Notes under the pieces: generated by a model
What the model was told of the DNA's origin: nothing
The model's database searches: none
Seen by the model: only the letters and a program-made list of their open reading frames with translations
Origin: Patescibacteria group bacterium
GTDB taxonomy: Bacteria > Patescibacteriota > Patescibacteriia > UBA9934
Length of the DNA stretch: 64,000 nt
NCBI GenBank assembly: GCA_041666145.1
Contig: JBAYHK010000001.1
Location: forward strand, 67,810 to 131,809
Direction: 5' to 3'
Shown here: piece by piece, positions 7,904 to 38,012 of the stretch
Position numbering within the stretch: position 1 is the stretch's first letter
Layout of the letters: the number at the start of each line of letters is the position of its first letter
Translations under genes and position numbers: made by a program

Positions 7904-8833
7904 CTAGTACTCTCCAACAAAAATCGCCGTAAGAACCTGACTATATCTTCCGCCTGCTTGCGACGAAGAAATCCCAACCTTAAGCGTAACAAAACCTGGA
8001 ATTACAAACGGGTGAGCAGATTCGCTAGCAACGAGAAGCGGAGTCGATGAAAAGGCCGTATCCTGAGTGTCGAATGTCGACAATGATAATGAAGGATCCG
8101 AGGAACGCCCTCCATATTCGCTCGACCCCGATGAAACTGATCCATCTGTAACTCCGGGAATAAAATCCGAATCGGAACGAAGGTCTCCGTCGGAAAAAAT
8201 ATAAACAGAATAGCCATCATCTACGTCCGCAGTTGCTGTCCATCCAATCGTGTGAGTGGCGACGCTGGAATTCAATAAAGTACCAAAATTAATGGACGAA
8301 GAAGTCCCCATTCGGTAAACATAGTCGTTTACGCCATCAATAGTAGGGATAGGACCAGCTAATGGAACTGGGATTGTAATCACCGGACTAGAAATCCCAG
8401 AAGCCTGAACCATTGTCGTCACCTGGTCTTCCCCCTCATCCTGAACAACTAAAATATAATCGCCTGCAGAAAACTCTGAGGTTGAAGTAACAGTAATCTC
8501 TCCTCCTCCTACCAGTGGTGTGTACCGAAGAGCGGCGACCTGCGTGCTCCTATCTTGAATATAAGGGATATAGCTAATAACGCGATTGTAAACGCCAGCC
8601 CGAAACCCCTGAGAAATTGAATAACTGTCAGAGGAAGCCGTACTCGATGCCGAATCCGAAATGCTCCCCCGTAAATTATAAGAAGTCGACGAAGAGTCTC
8701 CTCCTCCTGAAGAAATCTCATCCCATTGAATCTGATAATTCGTAGAAGTCATTCCAGCTAAAACAAAGCTAGATCGAAAAGTGCAAAATATTGCAAATAT
8801 AAGCAAAATAAATACTATCTTTTTTCTAAACAT
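7904..8833 (-). CDS. Secreted hypothetical protein (first gene of surface-protein operon)
   Basis: 309 aa ORF with signal peptide MFRKKIVFILLIFAIFCTFRSSFVLAG. Ser/Thr/Gly-rich. No recognisable catalytic motif. Confidence 0.6.
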   Translation of the reverse strand: MFRKKIVFILLIFAIFCTFRSSFVLAGMTSTNYQIQWDEISSGGGDSSSTSYNLRGSISDSASSTASSDSYSISQGFRAGVYNRVISYIPYIQDRSTQVAALRYTPLVGGGEITVTSTSEFSAGDYILVVQDEGEDQVTTMVQASGISSPVITIPVPLAGPIPTIDGVNDYVYRMGTSSSINFGTLLNSSVATHTIGWTATADVDDGYSVYIFSDGDLRSDSDFIPGVTDGSVSSGSSEYGGRSSDPSLSLSTFDTQDTAFSSTPLLVASESAHPFVIPGFVTLKVGISSSQAGGRYSQVLTAIFVGEY

Positions 8834-9018
8834 AATCTTAGCCGTTCTCTATAAACTCCATAATGCGTCATGTGAGAATTGAAAACAACGCAAAAGAACA
8901 CACTCTGTGGATAAAGTATGGATATCCCTGTTTATATTCGGTGTCTATGTTAATAATACATATTTGTCTACACCTTTGTAGACAAACTTATTCGATGAAA
9001 TCGGAGTTTATCAACAAG

Positions 9019-9032
9019 GTTTCACGTGAAAC
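9019..9032. promoter_or_regulatory. parS: parS site 1 (perfect palindrome GTTTCACGTGAAAC; matches ParB-binding consensus tGTTNCACGTGAAACa)
   Basis: Exact 14 bp palindrome, extended gGTTTCACGTGAAACat. Confidence 0.7.
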
Positions 9033-9243
9033 ATCGAAAATATAACTCTCTCTCCGGCCTTGCAGCCGGGGTTTCTCGTGCTAATCGATCGTTCGTTCTC
9101 GCTACTCATCTTGAAGCGAGCTCGAATGGAGACTGCATCCTCGACCTAACGGTACGAGGCTTTACGCTGGACGAATAAAAACTAAACGAGAAATCCAGGA
9201 GCAAAATTGCCCTAAGGCGCCATTTTCACAAATCCTAAAAACT

Positions 9244-9257
9244 GTTTCACGTGAAAC
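9244..9257. promoter_or_regulatory. parS: parS site 2 (TGTTTCACGTGAAACA)
   Basis: Exact 16 bp match to the firmicute-type parS consensus. Confidence 0.7.
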
Positions 9258-9466
9258 ATTAAAATCGGATGACGGCAAATCTCTAGACGGCAAACCAATT
9301 CAAAAATCTCCTTTTAAGGGTTTTCCTCGCAGCTTGCTGCGTTTCCACTCTTAGGCAGAAGAAGCTAATCAATTGAGCCCCGATGCCTCGCCGAAGCTCT
9401 GCGAGGGCACAGCTTGCTGCGAGGAGGTTCATCGATAATTTCCGAACAAATCAATTCAACCCATTT

Positions 9467-9480
9467 TGTTTCACGTGAAA
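9467..9480. promoter_or_regulatory. parS: parS site 3 (core of 22 bp perfect palindrome TTTTGTTTCACGTGAAACAAAA)
   Basis: Exact palindrome lying between an intergenic spacer and the tRNA-Ala 3' end. Confidence 0.7.
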
Positions 9481-9512
9481 CAAAACACCCGCACTTTACA
9501 TGCGGGTGTTTT

Positions 9513-9588
9513 GTGGTGGACCTGAGCGGATTCGAACCGCTGGCCTCTGCAATGCGAATGCAGCGCTCTACCAACTGAGCTACAGGCC
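9513..9588 (-). tRNA. tRNA-Ala (anticodon CGC)
   Basis: Reverse complement reads GGGCCTGTAGCTCAGTTGGTAGAGCGCTGCATTCGCATTGCAGAGGCCAGCGGTTCGAATCCGCTCAGGTCCACCA. G3:U70 Ala identity pair, cloverleaf folds cleanly, CCA encoded. Confidence 0.9.
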
Positions 9589-9684
9589 CAAATTTTGACC
9601 TTAGGCGAGATTTAAATCTCGAACTCCTTTCTTTTTCAGAACCAAATCTGAAAATCAATAGTCTCGAAGCCCATTCCAAGATAT

Positions 9685-9698
9685 GTTTCACGTGAAAC
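9685..9698. promoter_or_regulatory. parS: parS site 4 (core of 22 bp perfect palindrome ATATGTTTCACGTGAAACATAT)
   Basis: Exact palindrome between tRNA-Ala and tRNA-Arg. Confidence 0.7.
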
Positions 9699-9745
9699 AT
9701 ATCTTTACATCCAATTCTTCAACTAAAAAATTTCAGATCAAAACC

Positions 9746-9925: not shown

Positions 9926-11041
9926 ATGGACTATTCATCACTTCTCATAATGGCAATCGGCTTTGCCGCAACCATCGGAATATTAATCTGGCTCCAAACT
10001 CGCAAACAAGACGATTCTGGAGTGTCGCAAAATCTTATAGCCGAAATAGCCCGTATTCGTGAAGAATTTCTTCGTGTTTCAACAGAACAGCGCCAAGAAA
10101 CACAACAACGCCTTGATCGCGTTAACGACCAGCTCTACCGAGGCATCGCCGACTCACAAAAAACCATGCAAGATCAATTCAGCCAAACCTCACGCATCAT
10201 CCAAGAGGTAACAACGAAACTAACAACTCTCGATGCAACAAATAAACAGGTCCTTGATTTCTCTTCACAACTAAAAAATCTTCAAGATATTCTCAAGAAT
10301 CCAAAACACCGCGGAATCCTTGGAGAATATTATCTTGAAACACTTTTAAAAAATGCGCTCCCACCAGAGCACTATGCAATGCAATATCGGCTAGGAAAAG
10401 ACGAGGAAGGAAAAGATTTAATTCCAGATGCGGTTGTTTTTGTAAAAGAAAAAATCATTCCGATTGATTCGAAGTTTTCTCTTGAAAATTACAACCGAAT
10501 CACCGAAGAACAGGACGCGACGGAGCGAGGAAGACTTGAGAAGCTCTTCGTAAATGATCTGAAAAATCGAATTGTCGAAACATCAAAATACATTCATCCA
10601 GAAAAAGGAACCATGGACTTTGCATTCATGTTTATCCCTCATGAAGCTATTTATTACGATCTTCTCGTGAATAAAATTGGCGGGTCGCAAGAAGATAACG
10701 AGAACCTTATCCAGCGCGCTGCAAGCAAATATCACGTCATTATCGTCTCTCCAACATCATTTCTTGCGTATCTTCAAACTGTCCTACAGGCCCTACATGC
10801 AATGAAAATCGAGGAACGCGCACAAGACATTATTAAAAATGTCTCAGACCTTGGAAAGCATTTCAGAGCGTACTCCGAATTTCATCTCAAAGTAGGGAAC
10901 AATCTCACCACTGTCGTGAACCAATACAATCTCTCAAGCAATGAACTAAAAAAGTTCACGAAGGATATGATAAAAATAACGAACAGTTCGAGCGACGAAA
11001 TCATCGAAATCGGAATGCTGGAAAAACCACAGATTGAATAG
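9926..11041 (+). CDS. rmuC: DNA recombination protein RmuC
   Basis: N-terminal TM plus coiled coil. Conserved block GILGEYYLETLL...PDAVVFVKEKIIPIDSKFSLENY...FAFMFIPHEAIY is typical of the RmuC family. Confidence 0.8.
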   Translation: MDYSSLLIMAIGFAATIGILIWLQTRKQDDSGVSQNLIAEIARIREEFLRVSTEQRQETQQRLDRVNDQLYRGIADSQKTMQDQFSQTSRIIQEVTTKLTTLDATNKQVLDFSSQLKNLQDILKNPKHRGILGEYYLETLLKNALPPEHYAMQYRLGKDEEGKDLIPDAVVFVKEKIIPIDSKFSLENYNRITEEQDATERGRLEKLFVNDLKNRIVETSKYIHPEKGTMDFAFMFIPHEAIYYDLLVNKIGGSQEDNENLIQRAASKYHVIIVSPTSFLAYLQTVLQALHAMKIEERAQDIIKNVSDLGKHFRAYSEFHLKVGNNLTTVVNQYNLSSNELKKFTKDMIKITNSSSDEIIEIGMLEKPQIE

Positions 11042-15980: not shown

Positions 15981-16057
15981 GCCCTGGTAGCTCAGTTGGA
16001 TAGAGCAGGGGACTTCTAGGCCCAAGGTCAGTGGTTCGATTCCACTCCAGGGCACCA
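15981..16057 (+). tRNA. tRNA-Arg (anticodon TCT) with a defective anticodon stem (only 3 Watson-Crick pairs); possibly a pseudo-tRNA
   Basis: GCCCTGGTAGCTCAGTTGGATAGAGCAGGGGACTTCTAGGCCCAAGGTCAGTGGTTCGATTCCACTCCAGGGCACCA. Perfect acceptor, D and T arms. Anticodon arm GGGGA/CTTCTAG/GCCCA has mismatched terminal pairs. Confidence 0.6.
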
Positions 16058-16104
16058 GACTTTCTACACAAACAAAAAACCTCCCGAATAGGGAGATTTT
16101 TTAA

Positions 16105-16179
16105 TGGGGCGACTAACGGGGATCGAACCCGTGTAGCCGGGACCACAACCCGGTGCTCTACCATTGAGCTATAGCCGCC
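16105..16179 (-). tRNA. tRNA-His (anticodon GTG) with encoded G-1
   Basis: Reverse complement reads G-GCGGCTATAGCTCAATGGTAGAGCACCGGGTTGTGGTCCCGGCTACACGGGTTCGATCCCCGTTAGTCGCCCCA. Extra 5' G pairs with discriminator C. Terminator hairpin aaaaacctcccgaatagggagatttttt lies between this and the convergent tRNA-Arg. Confidence 0.85.
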
Positions 16180-16224
16180 ACAATCGTCGAACGAACGGCA
16201 AAATACCACGAACAATACACTCAA

Positions 16225-17199
16225 TCAAGCTTTTGTAGCTCCTTTGTCATGAAACTTCTGATGAACTCTCTTCAATTCTTTATCCGTAACATGCGTATAA
16301 ACCTGTGTCGTAGTAATCGACTCATGGCCAAGGAGCGACTGGACAGAGCGAATATCGGCGCCATTTCGGAGAAGATCGGTAGCAAAAGTGTGACGAAGGG
16401 TATGAGGGGTGACAGGTTTCGTAATGCCGGCAAGTCGCGCGTAGCGGTCAACAATACGCTGCACCGATCGAGGAGTAAGCGGAGCCGCTTCTGGTGCCTG
16501 ATTCTTTGCTCGATCGTGACGAACAAAAAGAAACTGCGAAACGTCATGACGGTGATCGATATAAGCTTTCAGGGCTCGCTTCGCTGCGTCGGAAACAAAA
16601 ACAATTCTGTGCTTGCTTCCTTTTCCTTTGATTGTGAATTCATCACGTTTTAAGTTCACTTGTTCTATCAGAAGCCCTGCACATTCAGAAACACGAAGAC
16701 CCGTTGAAAACAAAAGTTCAAGGATCGCCTTGTCGCGCAGTCCAACGATCGTTTCATCTTCACTCGGCCCAGACAAGAATCGAGCAAGCTCTTCTGGTTC
16801 AAGAAACATCACGTGACGTGATCCTTGTTTTGCGAGTTCGATTTTATCTGCAGAAAGCGTCTTTATGTCTCGTTTTGCAAGATATTTCAAGAATGCTCGA
16901 AGAGCGATGAGATGATAGTTCTGTGTGTTTTTCTGCAGCGACTCTTCATCTCTTCCCGCGATTTCGCGATTCAAATACAGCCGATACTTTCGAACCATCT
17001 CTAGTGTTATTTCTCCCGGATTTGGGTCTTTTGCCCAAGTAGCAAATCGATCGAGATAGAAATGATAGTTCCGCGTGGTTTTTTCACTCCTTCCGCGCTC
17101 AATCTCAAGATACTCACAAAATTCCTTCATTAACGTTCGCATTCCCTTTGCCATATTCTCTATTGTACCGCTTTTGCGACACAAAGTAGACGAAGCCAT
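16225..17199 (-). CDS. Tyrosine site-specific recombinase, XerC/XerD family (probable start at internal Met near 17154)
   Basis: N-terminal SAM-like core-binding domain (FCEYLEIERGRSEKTTRNYHFYLDRF). C-terminal catalytic motifs HTLRHTFATDLL and LLGHESITTTQVYTHV. Confidence 0.85.
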   Translation of the reverse strand: MASSTLCRKSGTIENMAKGMRTLMKEFCEYLEIERGRSEKTTRNYHFYLDRFATWAKDPNPGEITLEMVRKYRLYLNREIAGRDEESLQKNTQNYHLIALRAFLKYLAKRDIKTLSADKIELAKQGSRHVMFLEPEELARFLSGPSEDETIVGLRDKAILELLFSTGLRVSECAGLLIEQVNLKRDEFTIKGKGSKHRIVFVSDAAKRALKAYIDHRHDVSQFLFVRHDRAKNQAPEAAPLTPRSVQRIVDRYARLAGITKPVTPHTLRHTFATDLLRNGADIRSVQSLLGHESITTTQVYTHVTDKELKRVHQKFHDKGATKA

Positions 17200-17280
17200 T
17201 GATCAATATAGGCATTTTGTGCTAATCTCATCCGTCCTCATGACTCCAACATACAACACGAACAGAGAAAGGAAGGAACA

Positions 17281-17685
17281 TTGGGAGAAAAGACCATTGT
17301 CACCCATGAGCTTTATAAAGAAAGGCGCGTGGCTATCTTTTCCGGCGTAAAGCTCAACAACCACAACGGAATAGTCAGAATAGGAATACAAAGAGTCACT
17401 CAAGACAAACTCTGTGGCATAAGAATACTCGCCCCGGGCTGCAGCAAGGAACATGACATCGCCTTCGAAAAAGTAAGAATTGATCGCGGACTAATCGACG
17501 GAAGGTGCCACTTCGACCTAACCGGAGCCAAAAACCTCGATGACCCATACACCTGGGCGATTAACTTCATTGGAACGCTTGTCTTCTGTATAAAAGATGG
17601 TGAAATAGCAGCAAAATTCACTATCTTTAGAACAGAGTTCTGGCTTAAAAGTCCAGAATTTGAAGAGTTCTTGGCCCGGACCTGA
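17281..17685 (+). CDS. Hypothetical protein
   Basis: 134 aa ORF between the integrase and the toxin-antitoxin pair. No motif recognised. Confidence 0.4.
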   Translation: MGEKTIVTHELYKERRVAIFSGVKLNNHNGIVRIGIQRVTQDKLCGIRILAPGCSKEHDIAFEKVRIDRGLIDGRCHFDLTGAKNLDDPYTWAINFIGTLVFCIKDGEIAAKFTIFRTEFWLKSPEFEEFLART

Positions 17686-17792
17686 TCCTGTGACAAGCGA
17701 GGAAGTGCGGGGAAATAAAATCCACCGTCACAACGCAACGCGTCCAACTGCAGAAGCTACTACGGCTTCACGGTCTGGGCGCGTTTCTGTTT

Positions 17793-18128
17793 TTAAGAAA
17801 GGTCTGACATTCCGAAAATTTGATGGAGATTTTGATGAATTGTTTTACGATATTGATCTTCGACAGTTCCGATTCGACCGATGGCACAGCGAGTATCAAG
17901 TGTAGAAAGTTTTGAAAGGCAGAGAACGGAATCTACTCGTAAGCCGTTTTCTTCAGACTTCAGAATGCTCACATCAAACTCGCCAATCTTTTTCACCTTC
18001 GACGTCAAAAATGCCACCACCATGTCTCCCTGTTTTTCGTCAACGAATAAGACGAGCGCCGGTCGAACTTTCTGGCCAGAAAGATCGGAAAAGGGAAATG
18101 GAGTCAGTACAATGTCCCACCTAAACAT
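17793..18128 (-). CDS. Type II toxin, PemK/MazF-family mRNA interferase
   Basis: Characteristic PemK-like segment VRPALVLFVDEKQGDMVVAFLTSKV. 111 aa. Start overlaps the stop of the upstream antitoxin. Confidence 0.75.
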   Translation of the reverse strand: MFRWDIVLTPFPFSDLSGQKVRPALVLFVDEKQGDMVVAFLTSKVKKIGEFDVSILKSEENGLRVDSVLCLSKLSTLDTRCAIGRIGTVEDQYRKTIHQNLHQIFGMSDLS

Positions 18129-18372
18129 AAGCCTCTTTTACATCGTCACGCGAATACAGGTCTGGTTCGTCCTTAAGAAAGTCGAAACTCGACGAATTCG
18201 CGTTAATATTTGTAATATCGCTCAAAGATTTATTGTAATGTTCCGGGAATCTGATAATGATCGCATCGTGATGACTGTGCCTGCCAACAACAAAGACTTC
18301 GTTTTCATGCCTAACCTCGTCAATGATCTGTTTAATATTTTTTCGAGCAACTGTTGTGCTGACAACTTTCAT
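18121..18372 (-). CDS. Type II antitoxin, Phd/YefM family
   Basis: MKVVSTTVARKNIKQIIDEVRHENEVFVVGRHSHHDAIII is the canonical Phd/YefM N-terminus. 83 aa. Translationally coupled to the downstream toxin. Confidence 0.75.
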   Translation of the reverse strand: MKVVSTTVARKNIKQIIDEVRHENEVFVVGRHSHHDAIIIRFPEHYNKSLSDITNINANSSSFDFLKDEPDLYSRDDVKEAYV

Positions 18373-18373
18373 A

Positions 18374-18388
18374 TGTACAAAATGTACA
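18374..18388. promoter_or_regulatory. Tandem TGTACA motifs abutting the antitoxin start codon; candidate YefM-type operator
   Basis: Sequence TGTACAaaaTGTACA. TGTACA hexamers form the core of the E. coli yefM-yoeB operator palindromes. Confidence 0.4.
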
Positions 18389-18523
18389 AAAGAATGAAAC
18401 CAATGTCAAATCCTTGCGCCTTTTCCATTTTTCCGCTACCCTTAGCCGCGTCAATCATATCGTTCGCCTAGGTTTGAGGATTGAGCTCCTCGTTCTCAGA
18501 CGATCGAATAACTTTTCACTACT

Positions 18524-28896: not shown

Positions 28897-28910
28897 CCCA
28901 GACATCAAAC

Positions 28911-28939
28911 GGCCCCGACTCTCGTGTAGAGTCGGGGCC
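28911..28939. terminator. Bidirectional intrinsic terminator hairpin GGCCCCGACTCtcgtgtaGAGTCGGGGCC (copy 1 of 4 near-identical copies)
   Basis: 11 bp perfect stem with 7 nt loop, followed by gtgagttt. Serves tig (+) and the convergent small gene (-). Confidence 0.8.
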
Positions 28940-28979
28940 GTGAGTTTGTCGAAACGCTTCAATGGCCTCGACAGACGTC

Positions 28980-29186
28980 CTAATTTAGAGGAGTTGTTTT
29001 AGAAACAAGACCCGCGATACCAATTTGCAGGACCAAGAGCCCGAAAACTGGCAAGGACACGGATACGCATCCAAAAGACGCGATACTAGTTGATACGTCT
29101 CTTGGATCATAGACCCAGGAGCAGAAGATAAACGCGGCTAATCCAAGAAACACTAACGCCCAAAAACCGATTCTCTTGACCGTCAC
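28980..29186 (-). CDS. Small two-TM membrane protein, cassette-array paralog 1 (68 aa)
   Basis: Start codon, basic N-terminus, two hydrophobic helices. RBS agagaggtg upstream. Paralogous to the next three ORFs. Confidence 0.6.
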   Translation of the reverse strand: MTVKRIGFWALVFLGLAAFIFCSWVYDPRDVSTSIASFGCVSVSLPVFGLLVLQIGIAGLVSKTTPLN

Positions 29187-29471
29187 TATTCACCTCTCTT
29201 TTCATTACGAAGCTTGGTGGTTGTTTTCAGATCAAGCGCATCTTCGCAGTTTGTGCTTGAACGGGGAATAATGGCACAAATTAGCCAAAAGAACAAGACG
29301 ACGATTTGGGTGAAATATTGATCAGTTCCCAGAAGATTTCATGTTTGAGCTTACCGTAAACGAGTTGGAATCTTAAGGTGCCAAATTGGTACCTCAAGTT
29401 GGGGCGGTCAACGATTGCTCATTGATGATTCAGAAAAGCCGAAAATCGGTTTCAAGAAAAGATAATCAAAC

Positions 29472-29500
29472 GGCCCCGGCTCTCGCGTAGAGTCGGGGCC
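29472..29500. terminator. Terminator hairpin copy 2 (GGCCCCGGCTCtcgcgtaGAGTCGGGGCC)
   Basis: Near-identical to copy 1, immediately 3' of the minus-strand small ORF 29545..29739. Confidence 0.75.
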
Positions 29501-29544
29501 GTGAGTTTTTTGGGCGTGCCGAAGGCCTCAATGGAAACCCTGAC

Positions 29545-29739
29545 TCATCTCCTTGGGGGGGAAAGGCAGAAACCCAAAAGACCAACAGCGATGCCCATGA
29601 GTCCGCCGAAAATGCCGATTACTCTCGTAACAAAGATCACCGCTGCATCAGAACTACCTACTGGCTCGTAAAAAGCGAAAGATACGAGCAACACGAGCCC
29701 AAAAAGAATCACCAGCAAATAACGGAATCTTCGACTCAC
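29545..29739 (-). CDS. Small two-TM membrane protein, cassette-array paralog 2 (64 aa)
   Basis: MSRRFRYLLVILFGLVLLVSFAFYEPVGSSDAAVIFVTRVIGIFGGLMGIAVGLLGFCLSPPRR. Confidence 0.6.
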   Translation of the reverse strand: MSRRFRYLLVILFGLVLLVSFAFYEPVGSSDAAVIFVTRVIGIFGGLMGIAVGLLGFCLSPPRR

Positions 29740-29876
29740 AGTTCACCTCTCTCTTTCCACGGAGTTTGAAGGTTATTTTCAATTCAAGCCCATCTCCGTA
29801 GTTTGTGCTTGAACGAGGAATAATGGCACAAGTTAGCCAAAAGAACAAGGCTAAAATCATTCGAATGACATCAAAC

Positions 29877-29905
29877 GGCTCCGACTCTCGTGTAGAGTTG
29901 GGGCC
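29877..29905. terminator. Terminator hairpin copy 3 (GGCTCCGACTCtcgtgtaGAGTTGGGGCC)
   Basis: Same hairpin with compensatory C/T and T/G changes, 3' of ORF 29952..30143. Also forms the 3' end of a conserved plus-strand 27-codon ORF (29823..29909, MAQVSQKNKAKIIRMTSNGSDSRVELGP). Confidence 0.75.
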
Positions 29906-29951
29906 GTGAGTTTTTTGAAGCGTTTCGAATCTCTCGATAAGCACCCTGACC

Positions 29952-30143
29952 CTATCTTCTCGAACGAAACAGGCCGAAAAGGCCAACGGCAATGCCTACC
30001 AGCGAACTGAAGACGCCGAATACTTGCACGACATACATCGTCGCCACATCAGCCGAGCCATCTTTTGGCCCATAAAAACCAAAGAAGATAAGACACGCCA
30101 ATCCGCAAAGAATCAGCAACAAAGAACGGATTCCTCTAAACAT
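29952..30143 (-). CDS. Small two-TM membrane protein, cassette-array paralog 3 (63 aa)
   Basis: MFRGIRSLLLILCGLACLIFFGFYGPKDGSADVATMYVVQVFGVFSSLVGIAVGLFGLFRSRR, about 50% identical to paralog 2. Confidence 0.6.
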   Translation of the reverse strand: MFRGIRSLLLILCGLACLIFFGFYGPKDGSADVATMYVVQVFGVFSSLVGIAVGLFGLFRSRR

Positions 30144-34264: not shown

Positions 34265-34576
34265 AAAAGAGATCAAATTGAGACCGGACAAGACAAGGTC
34301 AAGCTGTACAAGGCTACTGAAGCGACGAGATGAAAGCGAGACAGGAAAGGACAAGACGCGGTGAAGCGTTTATTTTCGGTCAGTTTCGGTGCGCGACCAG
34401 CGAAGCTCGCGATCCCACTTCACTAAAGTTTCGTGGGATGCCTCCGAAGCTTTAGCGGAGGGGCAAACGTACTTAACGGTACGTTGAACGAATTTGCGAT
34501 GACGCAAGCCGAAAATGGCCAAAATAAACGCTTCACTCATCATAACAAAAATCCGACACTCGTCGGATTCTGTTTT

Positions 34577-34729: not shown

Positions 34730-34904
34730 ATGTGGCGAAAAGGGTACGCGCAACCGTTTGACATGTCAATAAAACAGCGAAGACTAGAAGAAAAAATGCG
34801 TCTTTGAGAGACCCAATTTTTTAGAAACGGCTTCAGACATCCACACCAAAAACAAAAACCGAACACGAAGGTCTTTTCTAGAAAATGTGCACAAGTACCC
34901 CCGC

Positions 34905-35002
34905 TTATCCACTCTTTTTGCCACCTTATCCACACTTTCATCCACTTTTCGACAAAATTGACGGCCTTTACACCTGTGGACAATTGGCTATGCTGTGGCC
35001 AA
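34905..35002. promoter_or_regulatory. DnaA-box cluster in rpmH-dnaA intergenic region (TTATCCACT, TTATCCACA, TCATCCACT, TGTGGACAA, TGTGGCCAA)
   Basis: Five boxes within 100 bp, including one perfect consensus. Classical oriC / dnaA promoter context. Confidence 0.7.
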
Positions 35003-35056
35003 TCGTCACGTCTGTCAGGGGATTTACGCCCTGTCACGTTGGTTGCCATCGAGACT

Positions 35057-36448
35057 ATGAATACCCACGAGCTTTGGGAGGCTGTTCTAGGAGAATTGGA
35101 GCTTGTTGTTAGCAAGGCGCATTTCACTACGTGGTTCAGACATACGTTCATCTGTGACTACAAGAATGGGGAAGTTGTTATTGGCATTCCGAATACCATT
35201 ACCCAACAATGGATCAGCAAAAAGCATCATCGAGACATCATTGAGAGCATCCAAAACATCACCAACCAATCCGTTCGTAGTCTTACCTATCGTGTCGCGA
35301 TAAAAACAAACGCTACGCAGCCACTCATTATTGAAGAAAAGAAGCCGCTCATTCCAGAGGCGCACGAAGATTACGGATTCATCCCAACCGGAGGCTCTGC
35401 GGAGGGCGCCACAGGAACAGGAACGATCACAGTAAATCCTTCATACACATTCCAGACCTTCGTTGTTGGCAAACAGAATGAGCTCGCTCATGCAGCCGCA
35501 CAAGCAGTGGCAGCACAACCAGGCGGCGCCTATAATCCGCTGTTCATCTACGGAGGCGTCGGGCTCGGCAAAACGCATCTTCTTCACGCCATCGCAAACG
35601 AAATGCGCCGCCGCAATCCAAGCGTTCGAATTCTTTACGTCACCTGTGAACGCTTCACCAACGACTTCATCAACGCGATTCGTTCAGGAAAGGGAAAAGA
35701 ATTCAAAGACCGCTACCGCAACGTCGACCTTCTTCTTATTGATGACATTCAGTTCATCACAGGAAAAGAAGGAACACAGGAGGAATTTTTCCACACATTC
35801 AACGCGCTTCACCAAGAACAGCGTCAAATCGTCATTTCGTCAGACCGTCCACCAAAATCCATAGCAAGTCTTGAAAAGCGACTGCAGTCACGACTCGAAT
35901 GGGGAATGCTTGTAGATATTGGAATGCCAGATCTTGAAACGCGCATCGCCATTTTGCAAAAGAAATGCATGGAGAAAGCCTTTCAACTCGATCGTGAAAT
36001 TCTTCATTACGTCGCATCGAACATCTACTCGAACATTCGCGAGCTTGAAGGCGCACTGAACAAAATCATCGCCATCCACCAATTCCGCAACATCGAACCA
36101 ACTCTCGAAAGCGTAAAGCCGATCATTACAAGCTTTGAATCTGAAAATGTTCGGAAGACCGTTACTCCACGCCAGCTCATCTTAGTAGTCTCTGAATATT
36201 TCGACATCACCATTGAAGACATCCTTGGAAAGTCTCGCGAAAAAAAGCTCGCCTTTCCACGCCAGATCATCATGTATCTCATGCGTGAAGAGATGAAAAC
36301 GTCATACCCTGCGATCGGAAACGAACTTGGCGGACGCGACCACACCACTGCAATGCACGCCTACGGCAAAATCGCGAACCTCTTAAAAGAGGATGAAAAA
36401 CTTCAAAAGGATCTCGAACTTATAAAACAGAAACTTTACGCGGGATAA
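35057..36448 (+). CDS. dnaA: Chromosomal replication initiator DnaA
   Basis: AAA+ Walker A GGVGLGKTHLL. Box VII and C-terminal DNA-binding domain. ORF-track start trimmed to MNTHELW. Confidence 0.95.
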   Translation: MNTHELWEAVLGELELVVSKAHFTTWFRHTFICDYKNGEVVIGIPNTITQQWISKKHHRDIIESIQNITNQSVRSLTYRVAIKTNATQPLIIEEKKPLIPEAHEDYGFIPTGGSAEGATGTGTITVNPSYTFQTFVVGKQNELAHAAAQAVAAQPGGAYNPLFIYGGVGLGKTHLLHAIANEMRRRNPSVRILYVTCERFTNDFINAIRSGKGKEFKDRYRNVDLLLIDDIQFITGKEGTQEEFFHTFNALHQEQRQIVISSDRPPKSIASLEKRLQSRLEWGMLVDIGMPDLETRIAILQKKCMEKAFQLDREILHYVASNIYSNIRELEGALNKIIAIHQFRNIEPTLESVKPIITSFESENVRKTVTPRQLILVVSEYFDITIEDILGKSREKKLAFPRQIIMYLMREEMKTSYPAIGNELGGRDHTTAMHAYGKIANLLKEDEKLQKDLELIKQKLYAG

Positions 36449-36734
36449 ATTGTGCATACATTGTGACAGTGCTGTGAACTGTGGATGCAGTGGGGAAAAG
36501 GCAGTGGAGTGATGGGTGTATTTCCATGTGGAAGAGGGTAGGATAAACAGTGATCAAAAACAGTAAACAATGAGGTCGACAAAATACTCCACACCAACGT
36601 CACCGACGTCGCCTCAATTCATCCACGGAAGGAAATTCAAAATCGCACTGGCACTAACCGCAATAATCGCTTATCCCCGCCATCCACACCCCTTACTGTT
36701 ACTACTGTTTGGAATAAAGAATTAAATCCTGAAT

Positions 36735-37868
36735 GTGAAGCTCTCTTGTACGCGAGAAAACTTATATCAAGGTCTTTCCATTACCAGTCATACCGGAGGA
36801 AAGAATGCGAACCTTCCGATTCTTAATAACATTCTTCTTCGAGCAGACATCGGCGGCTTAAAGCTCACCGCGACAAACCTCGAGTTAACGATTACCTGTA
36901 CGATTCGAGGGAAGGTAGACCAGCCTGGCGAATACACGCTTCCAGCAAAACTCTTTGTTGATTACGTTTCCCTTCTTCCAAATGAGCGCGTTGATCTTGA
37001 TCTTCTTGACCATGCGCTTTCAGTAACGTGCGATAAAACAAAAACAAAAATCAACGGACTTCCGGCGAATGAATTTCCACTCATCCCTCCAGTCACGGGA
37101 GGGGTCAGGTTCGTTGTTCCGGCCTCTGCGTTCGACGCAGCGCTCGGAAACGTTCTCTTTGCCGTTGCGACGAATGAAGCGCGTCAGGCGCTCACTGGAG
37201 TCTTCATGCATTTTGACGGGCTGAATGATCAAGTCGTTCTTGCTGCAACGGATAGTTATCGACTTGCAGAAAAAATTATTCCTCTCGCAGAGCGTGTAGA
37301 GGGCGAGCGCAAGACGATCGTTCCGTCGCGAACGCTTGCAGAGCTTCGTCGTATTTTGAGCGTGCTTCGAGACAACGCAGACGCGCCAGAGAACGTAGAT
37401 ATTGAGCTTACGGAAAGTCAGATTGTCTTTCGATATGGAACCGTTGAGCTTTCATCTCGTACTGTTGAAGGCGTGTACCCAGATTATCGACAGATTATCC
37501 CGAAGTCGGCATCAACAGAGATCACGGTCGATAAGGGCGCCTTTGCTCAGGCAATTAAGCGAACAAGTCTTTTTTCTAAAGCTGGACTTTTCGATGTGAA
37601 GCTTGAAATTAATCCAGTCGATAAAAATATTACACTTTCTGCTGCAGATGTCGGACGTGGCGAGAACACGGTTTCGATCGAAGGCGACGTCACGGGGATT
37701 GCGAGCGCCGCTGTTCTGAACTTTCGCTATTTACTCGACGGTGTGAATGCGATGTTGTCAGATCGAGTGGTTTTGAAGTTTATCGACGCGATGAATCCTT
37801 GCGTGGTGGTTCCTGAGAATCGTCCAGGAGATAAATATCTTTACATTGTGATGCCAATTCGGCAGTAG
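36735..37868 (+). CDS. dnaN: DNA polymerase III beta subunit (sliding clamp)
   Basis: 377 aa. Three-domain clamp pattern. Follows dnaA. Confidence 0.9.
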   Translation: MKLSCTRENLYQGLSITSHTGGKNANLPILNNILLRADIGGLKLTATNLELTITCTIRGKVDQPGEYTLPAKLFVDYVSLLPNERVDLDLLDHALSVTCDKTKTKINGLPANEFPLIPPVTGGVRFVVPASAFDAALGNVLFAVATNEARQALTGVFMHFDGLNDQVVLAATDSYRLAEKIIPLAERVEGERKTIVPSRTLAELRRILSVLRDNADAPENVDIELTESQIVFRYGTVELSSRTVEGVYPDYRQIIPKSASTEITVDKGAFAQAIKRTSLFSKAGLFDVKLEINPVDKNITLSAADVGRGENTVSIEGDVTGIASAAVLNFRYLLDGVNAMLSDRVVLKFIDAMNPCVVVPENRPGDKYLYIVMPIRQ

Positions 37869-37920: not shown

Positions 37921-38012
37921 TCGTCATTGCGAGGAAGGTAATCCTGACGAAGCGATCCAGGCCAGGCTCACATAAAGATTGCTTCGTTAGGATTACCTTC
38001 CTCGCAATGGCT
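37921..38012. repeat. REP/MITE-like element copy A: 29 bp inverted repeat CATTGCGAGGAAGGTAATCCTGACGAAGC / GCTTCGTTAGGATTACCTTCCTCGCAATG with 27 nt spacer
   Basis: Seen directly. The same about 40 bp motif recurs at 52401 and 60240, always just after a terminator. Confidence 0.7.

Follow-up and report, generated by a model that had tools for sequence, protein, structure and literature searches.

What is the function of the four palindromes that are interleaved with two tRNA genes in a 64,000-nucleotide stretch of DNA from a Patescibacteria group bacterium (NCBI GenBank assembly GCA_041666145.1, contig JBAYHK010000001.1, positions 67,810 to 131,809; hereafter the window), and do they represent the sites, termed parS, at which the partition protein ParB binds the chromosome? 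On the basis of sequence comparisons we consider it probable that they are ParB-type (Spo0J-type) chromosomal parS centromere sites of a chromosome from the class Paceibacteria. The evidence that carries this assignment comprises the match to the known consensus, the rarity of the motif outside the cluster, its conservation upstream of rmuC between flanks that have diverged, the proximity of the replication origin, and the association of the same motif with soj/spo0J genes in metagenomes. An initial annotation of the window had already suggested an origin-proximal cluster of ParB-type parS sites; this core of the proposal is the best-supported reading, while two additions to it, namely that the array is unusual in lying outside genes and that the spacers could encode small RNAs, found no support. 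A third, that the array would be the centre of ParB loading and SMC recruitment on the chromosome, is an inference.

All four sites are packed within 680 bp of one intergenic gap. Compared with the 16-bp parS consensus TGTTTCACGTGAAACA, they are the following:

9018..9033, no strand: parS1, GGTTTCACGTGAAACA, 15 of 16 positions matching, 14-bp core exact
9243..9258, no strand: parS2, TGTTTCACGTGAAACA, 16 of 16
9467..9482, no strand: parS3, 16 of 16, centre of a 22-bp perfect palindrome (9464-9485)
9684..9699, no strand: parS4, 16 of 16, centre of a 28-bp perfect palindrome (9678-9705), between tRNA-Arg and tRNA-Ala

The 14-mer GTTTCACGTGAAAC occurs exactly four times in the window (9019-9032, 9244-9257, 9468-9481 and 9685-9698), in agreement, to within one base, with the starts given earlier (9019, 9244, 9467 and 9685), the third of which is the start of the 16-mer rather than of the 14-mer. 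The attribution to the firmicute-type ParB-binding consensus holds, as the match to the 16-bp consensus is exact; however, the exact 16-mer noted at 9244 is not alone, since there are three of them (9243, 9467 and 9684), and of the two copies described as 22-bp perfect palindromes, the one at 9467 is of that length and the one at 9685 reaches 28 bp. Neighbouring sites are spaced by 225, 224 and 217 bp from start to start. Across the window, no extra copy of GTTTCACGTGAAAC appears at up to two mismatches, nothing beyond 9018, 9243, 9467 and 9684 matches the 16-mer at up to three, and none of 100 dinucleotide shuffles reached four matches to GTTTCACGTGAAAC. A separate observation concerns the half-parS heptamers (GTTTCAC/GTGAAAC), only two of which (32582 and 57151) are present outside the four sites in the whole window, versus about eight expected from base composition; this scarcity may indicate avoidance of stray ParB half-sites.

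The sequence of the window is also present in the metagenome-assembled genome (MAG) GCA_041660465.1 (contig JBAZWH010000005.1) as well as in an ENA contig of 171 kb and a metagenome from JGI. Its closest relatives within a species-level collection of genomes carry the labels Patescibacteria, Parcubacteria, Taylorbacteria or Paceibacterota. The set used for comparison consisted of 80 rmuC loci of related Patescibacteria, approximately 1.2 Mb in total. With up to two mismatches allowed, 16-mers were found in only four of them, those of the closest relatives, always just upstream of rmuC, and nowhere else in these 1.2 Mb. The case that the initial annotation had named as refuting its proposal, a palindrome that is a generic repeat, was therefore not seen, either in the window (three mismatches) or in the rest of the related loci (two mismatches). 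The four loci are arranged as follows:

L003 (RmuC 76% identical): DnaA box, parS, parS', tRNA-Ala, parS, tRNA-Arg, rmuC, in this order
L004: a parS-like site that abuts the tRNA-Ala terminator
L005: tRNA-Arg, preceded by three sites
L073: three sites in the vicinity of tRNA-Ala and a DnaA box

Several sites of the window have individual counterparts in these relatives. In L003, parS1 is matched by a site at 9110, at approximately 110-130 bp from the conserved DnaA box, and parS4 by an exact site (9671) between the same two tRNA genes, while the parS-like site of L004 occupies the position equivalent to parS3, adjoining the hairpin of the tRNA-Ala terminator. The gene order hyp309, tRNAs, rmuC, S20, holA, polA is retained in L003-L006. 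Between the genomes the spacers give no blastn match, while the parS sites, the tRNA genes and the DnaA box persist, and because of this persistence amid unmatched spacers the parS sites are conserved islands in fast-evolving DNA. The variant sites of the relatives are changed in one half and never compensated in the other (e.g. TGTTTCACATGAAACA, TGTTTCACGGGAAACA and TGTTTCCCGTGAAACA), which argues for half-site recognition by a dimeric protein and not for a function of the hairpin. The distance between sites ranges from 99 to 429 bp in the relatives, thus the regular spacing of 217-225 bp is not a conserved feature.

A scan of metagenomes for two exact 14-mers separated by 195-225 bp returned at least 120 loci and bore out the link between the motif and ParAB empirically. 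Four or more exact sites are present in 66 of the 120 matches listed (maximum 27), at least 62 of the 120 listed encode a soj/spo0J homologue within the fetched stretch, and among the matches listed the median distance from the parAB match to the nearest site is 155 bp; where at least 3 kb is available on both flanks, soj/spo0J is present in 13 of 16 listed loci. Multi-site arrays of exact parS are a common architecture, and given these 120 listed metagenomic loci, which mostly abut parAB, the same holds for dense intergenic arrays, so that the notion of an array unusual in lying outside genes has to be abandoned. The real peculiarity of the array is the lack of nearby parAB, not the intergenic position; in addition, it is recurrently embedded among tRNA genes and accompanied by a conserved DnaA box.

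A tRNA gene lies within 300 bp of the array in five of the 120 matches listed. In two of them, L105 and L182, parS alternates with tRNA-Pro, tRNA-Val and tRNA-Ala(CGC), together with DnaA-box-like repeats, and in L208, a 600-kb Paceibacterota contig, the order is tRNA-Val, parS, tRNA-Pro, repeats, tRNA-Ala(CGC), parS. Proteins labelled Candidatus Paceibacterota or Pacebacteria at NCBI share 95-96% identity with the NusA encoded in L105. A tRNA-Ala(CGC) gene adjoins parS in L003, L004, L073, L105, L182 and L208 alike. Since L105, L182 and L208 show the same layout, the placement of parS in tRNA clusters with tRNA-Ala(CGC) recurs in distant lineages of Paceibacteria. The array adjoins a local switch of GC skew in L105, L182, L095 and L187, and lies beside dnaA in the latter two, which is not so in the lineage of the window.

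Some further features of these metagenomic loci were observed. Arrays of 9-10-nt repeats lie between parS and the tRNA genes (L105 3905-4015, L182 1300-1415, L208 8200-8280), with the sequences TTCTGGACA, TGTGGATAT and TGGGGATAA in L105 and L182 and with GGATTCTGTCCGCATT-type repeats in L208; in L105 and L182 they are close to the GC-skew switch. These repeats may constitute a divergent cluster of DnaA boxes, i.e. an oriC located away from dnaA. The parS arrays without nearby parAB (L095, L105, L122, L135, L182, L187 and L208) have the gene of the CCA-adding enzyme (PolyA_pol + HD) as a common neighbour, and those of L105, L182 and L208 additionally have nusA and tig in common, which makes CCA-adding enzyme/nusA/tig a conserved centromere- or origin-region neighbourhood in that Paceibacterota lineage. 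A conserved neighbour protein was considered as an alternative binder of such orphan arrays and rejected, as the CCA-adding enzyme reflects synteny and is no candidate for DNA binding.

The position of the array relative to the origin is defined by the following features, in which dnaA and dnaN come after rnpA and rpmH:

34800..37100, plus strand: oriC region (reference point), DnaA boxes flanking dnaA and skew minimum
34958-36448: dnaA, 25.3 kb from the last parS site
36735-37868: dnaN
8906..8914, minus strand: perfect DnaA box TGTGGATAA, 112 bp to the left of parS1; the 309-aa gene starts 73 nt downstream
9008-9016: DnaA box with one mismatch, TTATCAACA, beside the perfect box

The distance of 25.3 kb agrees with the approximately 25 kb to dnaA estimated in the initial annotation. 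The cumulative G-C curve reaches its minimum within dnaN (37096), at a distance of 27.4 kb from the parS array. From dnaA, dnaN, the flanking DnaA boxes and this skew minimum, oriC is located 25-28 kb to the right of the parS cluster, which thus lies on the left replichore. Within about 1 kb of the sign change of the GC skew we also observed an inverted repeat of 33 nt (37925-38009; 94% complementary, 19-nt loop), in a 166-bp gap between the convergent genes of dnaN and a class-A penicillin-binding protein.

Besides the DnaA box at 8906, the 64 kb contain just one other perfect TGTGGATAA box (background of perfect boxes, 0.028 per kb). The box at 8906, in the same orientation and place, is the sole perfect one in each of L003-L006 (10-21 kb each) and one of two in L073 (L003 8978, L004 8753, L005 9353, L006 9161, L073 8708), and the 32-nt block that contains it is the sole blastn-conserved block of the left spacer region. 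The box is separated from the start of the 309-aa gene by about 72 nt (56 nt in L006), and in view of this fixed distance the simplest reading is that it would regulate the promoter of that gene. A second conserved motif, TTTGTCTACA(C), was noticed near the box and is palindromic at 8963-8986 of the window; approximately five DnaA boxes were noticed at the syntenic place of L006, where parS is lacking.

The parS cluster fills a gap of 1,092 bp between the 309-aa gene and rmuC, and no other non-coding stretch in the neighbourhood is of appreciable size. The borders and the other elements of the gap are:

7904-8833, minus strand: 309-aa hypothetical, secreted-looking protein, no Pfam match
9480..9514, minus strand: intrinsic-terminator-like hairpin directly 3' of tRNA-Ala, perfect 14-bp stem, loop of 7 nt, T-run extending into parS3
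9514..9589, minus strand: tRNA-Ala(CGC), ARAGORN, Rfam tRNA 72.6 bits
9746..9822, minus strand: tRNA-Arg(CCT), ARAGORN, Rfam tRNA 53.6 bits
9889..9917, minus strand: putative promoter-like TTGACT-17-TATACT upstream of tRNA-Arg, 10/12 in a consensus scan
9926-11041, plus strand: rmuC, right border of the gap

Both tRNA genes, which the initial annotation had described as threaded among the parS sites, are confirmed by ARAGORN as well as by Rfam. The blocks GTCGTAAAA and TATACT between tRNA-Arg and rmuC are kept in L003, L004 and L005, and the promoter-like site is likely to be the start of a transcript that comprises tRNA-Arg, parS4 and tRNA-Ala. Since this putative promoter precedes tRNA-Arg, no terminator is found between the two tRNA genes, and a hairpin follows tRNA-Ala, parS4 is probably transcribed inside a two-tRNA precursor. 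The end of that unit is probably marked by parS3, which shares 3 nt with the U-tract end of the tRNA-Ala terminator, and parS1 and parS2 probably lie in DNA with weak transcription or none. The idea that the palindrome is a general tRNA-associated motif was rejected because no parS-like palindrome accompanies the remaining four tRNA genes in the window.

The partition genes themselves were sought in the readable sequence, which consists of the window with approximately 8 kb on its left and 9 kb on its right (about 81 kb in all). Six-frame searches of the window with the regular expressions GERRxRA, ENxQR and KGGxGKT found neither ParA nor ParB, and no match in the window was obtained in tblastn searches with Spo0J and Soj queries, which were validated by dozens of matches in metagenome loci. 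Profile hidden Markov models built from 42 ParB and 57 ParA matches detected none among 7,444 open reading frames (ORFs) of the window, its extensions and the 80 loci of relatives, and Pfam identified neither ParA nor ParB among about 30 ORFs of the window. The claim that parAB are not in the window is thus upheld by regular expressions, tblastn, profiles and Pfam alike. A search of a 5.8-billion-protein database with the ParB profile returned ParBs of Clostridia only. No SMC is encoded in the window, where the sole SMC_N match, which falls short of the Pfam threshold, belongs to an ABC transporter.

Some results weigh against the assignment of the palindromes as parS. Genes of ParA or ParB were found neither in the approximately 81 kb read (-17 kb to +64 kb of the array) nor in the loci of the 80 relatives. 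The syntenic locus L006 keeps the DnaA boxes and both tRNA genes without parS there, and the cluster is therefore dispensable at this position. Finally, no paper on ParABS in Patescibacteria or the Candidate Phyla Radiation (CPR) was found in the literature searched. Nonetheless, the array is genuine, conserved and origin-proximal, and belongs to a known kind of segregation site.

Several other explanations have to be considered next to a working centromere. The lineage could have lost ParB or ParA, leaving a relic centromere whose palindromes are evolutionary vestiges or now serve a different DNA-binding protein. This would agree with the lack of parAB between -17 kb and +64 kb, when elsewhere the median distance between these genes and such arrays is 155 bp (among the matches listed), with the loss of the sites from the syntenic position in L006, and with the strong reduction of Patescibacteria genomes in general. 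However, without selection neither the three perfect 16-mers nor the perfect 14-mer core would survive when the spacers have diverged past detection by blastn, and exact sites persist in the diverged Paceibacterota L003, L005, L105, L182 and L208, hence we regard a relic as quite unlikely. We find it very unlikely that the palindromes have no centromere function and act instead on the RNA or the transcription of the tRNA genes, as processing sites (e.g. for RNase III), as terminators or as operators of another factor. It is true that parS4, probably part of the tRNA transcript, can fold into a hairpin (stem of 12-14 bp), that parS3 overlaps the tail of the tRNA-Ala terminator, that the sites of L105, L182 and L208 are 4-7 nt from the 5' ends of tRNA genes, and that the window encodes two TrmB-type regulators. 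However, what is conserved is the sequence and not the structure, the variants in relatives being all uncompensated changes of a single half; moreover, parS1 and parS2 adjoin no tRNA gene, the window's four other tRNA genes are without a site, and elsewhere arrays of the same 14-mer are found beside soj/spo0J, with a tRNA gene nearby in only five of the 120 matches listed.

The DnaA box raises the possibility that the region is, or was, a replication origin or a DnaA-controlled element, with parS as a part of an oriC-type module of DnaA box, parS and tRNA genes. All six syntenic genomes have a conserved perfect DnaA box next to the cluster, and arrays of parS and tRNA genes adjoin a skew switch in L105, L182, L095 and L187, with DnaA-box-like repeats in the first two and with dnaA beside the array in the last two. 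On the other hand, the GC skew does not change sign at the 9-kb locus, being negative on both sides in the window as well as in L003, L005, L006 and L073, and because of this the locus was rejected as a true replication origin. The skew switch and denser clusters of DnaA boxes flank dnaA at 34.8-37.1 kb, compared with one perfect box and one box with a single mismatch at 9 kb, and the fixed distance of the former from the start of the 309-aa gene points to promoter regulation. We therefore consider an origin-type module extremely unlikely here; it is compatible with the identity of the sites as parS, to which it merely adds a role. A more elaborate possibility, which we hold to be unlikely, is a composite centromere module of Paceibacteria, in which parS is threaded through a tRNA cluster with tRNA-Ala(CGC), beside DnaA boxes, and uncoupled from parAB. 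If this were true, the loading of ParB would be functionally linked to tRNA transcription and/or DnaA binding, as it is to DnaA at the centromere of Caulobacter, and in the extreme form the lineage would lack a canonical ParB and another protein would read the sites.

The intervals between parS1, parS2 and parS3 were analysed separately, as the initial annotation had suggested that they could be small RNAs:

9034..9242, no strand: spacer 1, non-coding, not conserved, long-range stem 9066-9079 / 9186-9199
9259..9466, no strand: spacer 2, non-coding, not conserved, long-range stem 9324-9339 / 9410-9425

The GC-rich hairpins reported in them do exist (ccggccttgcagccgg at 9055-9070, cgcagcttgctgcg at 9328-9341), but the second copy attributed to the latter reads cacagcttgctgcg, with an exact repeat limited to 12 nt (9410-9421); together the two copies make up the 16-nt inverted repeat of 9324-9339 with 9410-9425. 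The covariance-model scan for known non-coding RNAs that had been proposed as a check was run with Rfam, using gathering as well as E-value thresholds, and returned the two tRNAs and sub-threshold noise, with no family match in the spacers. Searched with blastn (word size 7, E <= 0.01), neither spacer matched any of the related loci, that of the closest relative included. Folding z-scores against shuffled sequences are -1.6 and -1.2 for the minus strand and -2.9 and -0.5 for the plus strand. With no Rfam match, no conservation and z-scores from -0.5 to -2.9, the suggestion of small RNAs is not supported, though it is possible that the spacers are transcribed. Two other origins were tried and rejected: ARAGORN at relaxed thresholds found no credible tRNA remnant in spacers 1 and 2, as would be expected of tRNA pseudogenes, and in a MAFFT alignment of the four units of approximately 220 bp the parS core alone aligns convincingly, with no homology beyond it that would betray tandem duplicates of parS and tRNA. 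Both the spacing of about 220 bp and the sequence of the spacers most likely represent incidental filler.

A family of nearly perfect long hairpins (130-160 nt) was noticed in the window (34372-34532, between rpmH and rnpA, minus strand), in L003 (9300-9434) and in L006 (9497-9625), with the common apex ACGTACTTNANGGTACGT, folding z-scores of -4.1, -8.7 and -7.0, respectively, and no Rfam match. It directly follows tRNA-Ala in L003 and L006 and has another context in the window; its possible identities are a mobile palindromic element, a giant terminator and an unknown RNA. The spacers resemble this family in architecture (a closing stem around a branched core), but share no sequence similarity with it and are much less stable, and we provisionally treat them as filler.

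Comparison with experimentally characterized systems helps to define what is common and what is particular in the array. With the parS sites of Firmicutes (the Spo0J sites of B. subtilis; Streptococcus pneumoniae, which has four origin-proximal parS, PMC4488948) it shares the identical 16-bp consensus TGTTNCACGTGAAACA, the small number of sites and the proximity to the origin, and by analogy its expected role would be that of ParB nucleation, spreading and SMC loading. Unlike in Firmicutes, where the sites are spread over tens to hundreds of kb and often lie in genes, all four are here in 680 bp of one gap, and no ParB is encoded in the 81 kb read. Myxococcus xanthus has 22 parS near the origin (PMC3899335), and its array and the metagenomic ones resemble that of the window in comprising several exact sites placed in non-coding DNA at intervals of tens to hundreds of bp; however, those arrays abut parA-parB (median 155 bp among the matches listed), while the one described here has no parAB from -17 to +64 kb and is threaded through a tRNA operon. 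In Pseudomonas aeruginosa, the high-affinity sites parS1-4 are near oriC, and some are intergenic over promoters, where ParB binding represses the neighbours (review: PMC7022226). The number of sites and the vicinity of oriC are the same, but in P. aeruginosa the sites are spread around oriC and parAB instead of being confined to 680 bp, and the present array belongs to another phylum. The centromere of Caulobacter is about 8 kb from the origin, compared with approximately 25 kb here. According to the review PMC6399470 of the work of Mera et al. 2014, the parS region of Caulobacter crescentus carries DnaA boxes, and binding of DnaA at parS triggers segregation. The presence of DnaA boxes in the centromere region is thus a further similarity; however, the role of DnaA was experimentally shown in Caulobacter, whereas the box of the window, at its fixed distance to a gene start, may simply regulate a promoter.

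If the sites are parS, as we propose, a mechanism can be outlined from the reviews of ParABS systems (PMC7022226 and PMC6399470; also PMC4488948 and PMC3899335). ParB dimers would bind each 16-bp palindrome, and bound ParB would close into clamps loaded with cytidine triphosphate (CTP) that slide to the flanking DNA, so that four sites in 680 bp may act as one strong nucleation zone. The resulting partition complex would be moved by ParA and would load SMC, where present, aligning the chromosome arms. The predicted layout has parS4 within the two-tRNA unit, parS3 abutting the terminator, and parS1 and parS2 beyond it, toward the DnaA box. It is tempting to speculate that, with sites flanking strongly transcribed tRNA genes, clamps could be loaded on either side of a transcriptional roadblock.

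A few other features within and beyond the window should be mentioned. At 15981-18450, genes of tRNA-Arg(TCT) and tRNA-His, the latter inverted in L003, adjoin a tyrosine recombinase (16225-17199) and a PemK/Phd toxin-antitoxin pair (17793-18372), a combination that could be a small integrated element or include a XerC/D-type gene. At 28897-29740 there is an apparently duplicated unit of about 560 bp with no Rfam match, in which near-identical GC-rich hairpins (28909-28941 and 29470-29502) each stand beside an ORF of a small predicted membrane protein (68 and 64 aa), and the overlapping ORFs 29186-29296 and 29654-29992 have the motif FWLxCAIIPRSSTN in common. Approximately 4-6 kb past the right end of the window (L083 15869-17889, corresponding to about 68.0-70.0 kb of the window) lie five tandem small genes that carry the T4SS_pilin domain (PF18895).

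The locus described here provides a concrete and conserved candidate centromere for a Paceibacteria chromosome. It can also serve as a landmark for orienting MAG assemblies, in which the ori-proximal region spans the distance from the parS array to dnaA. Two of its features, the repeated location of parS in tRNA clusters and its uncoupling from parAB, could be traced across the phylum, and neither of them changes the basic picture of parS function.

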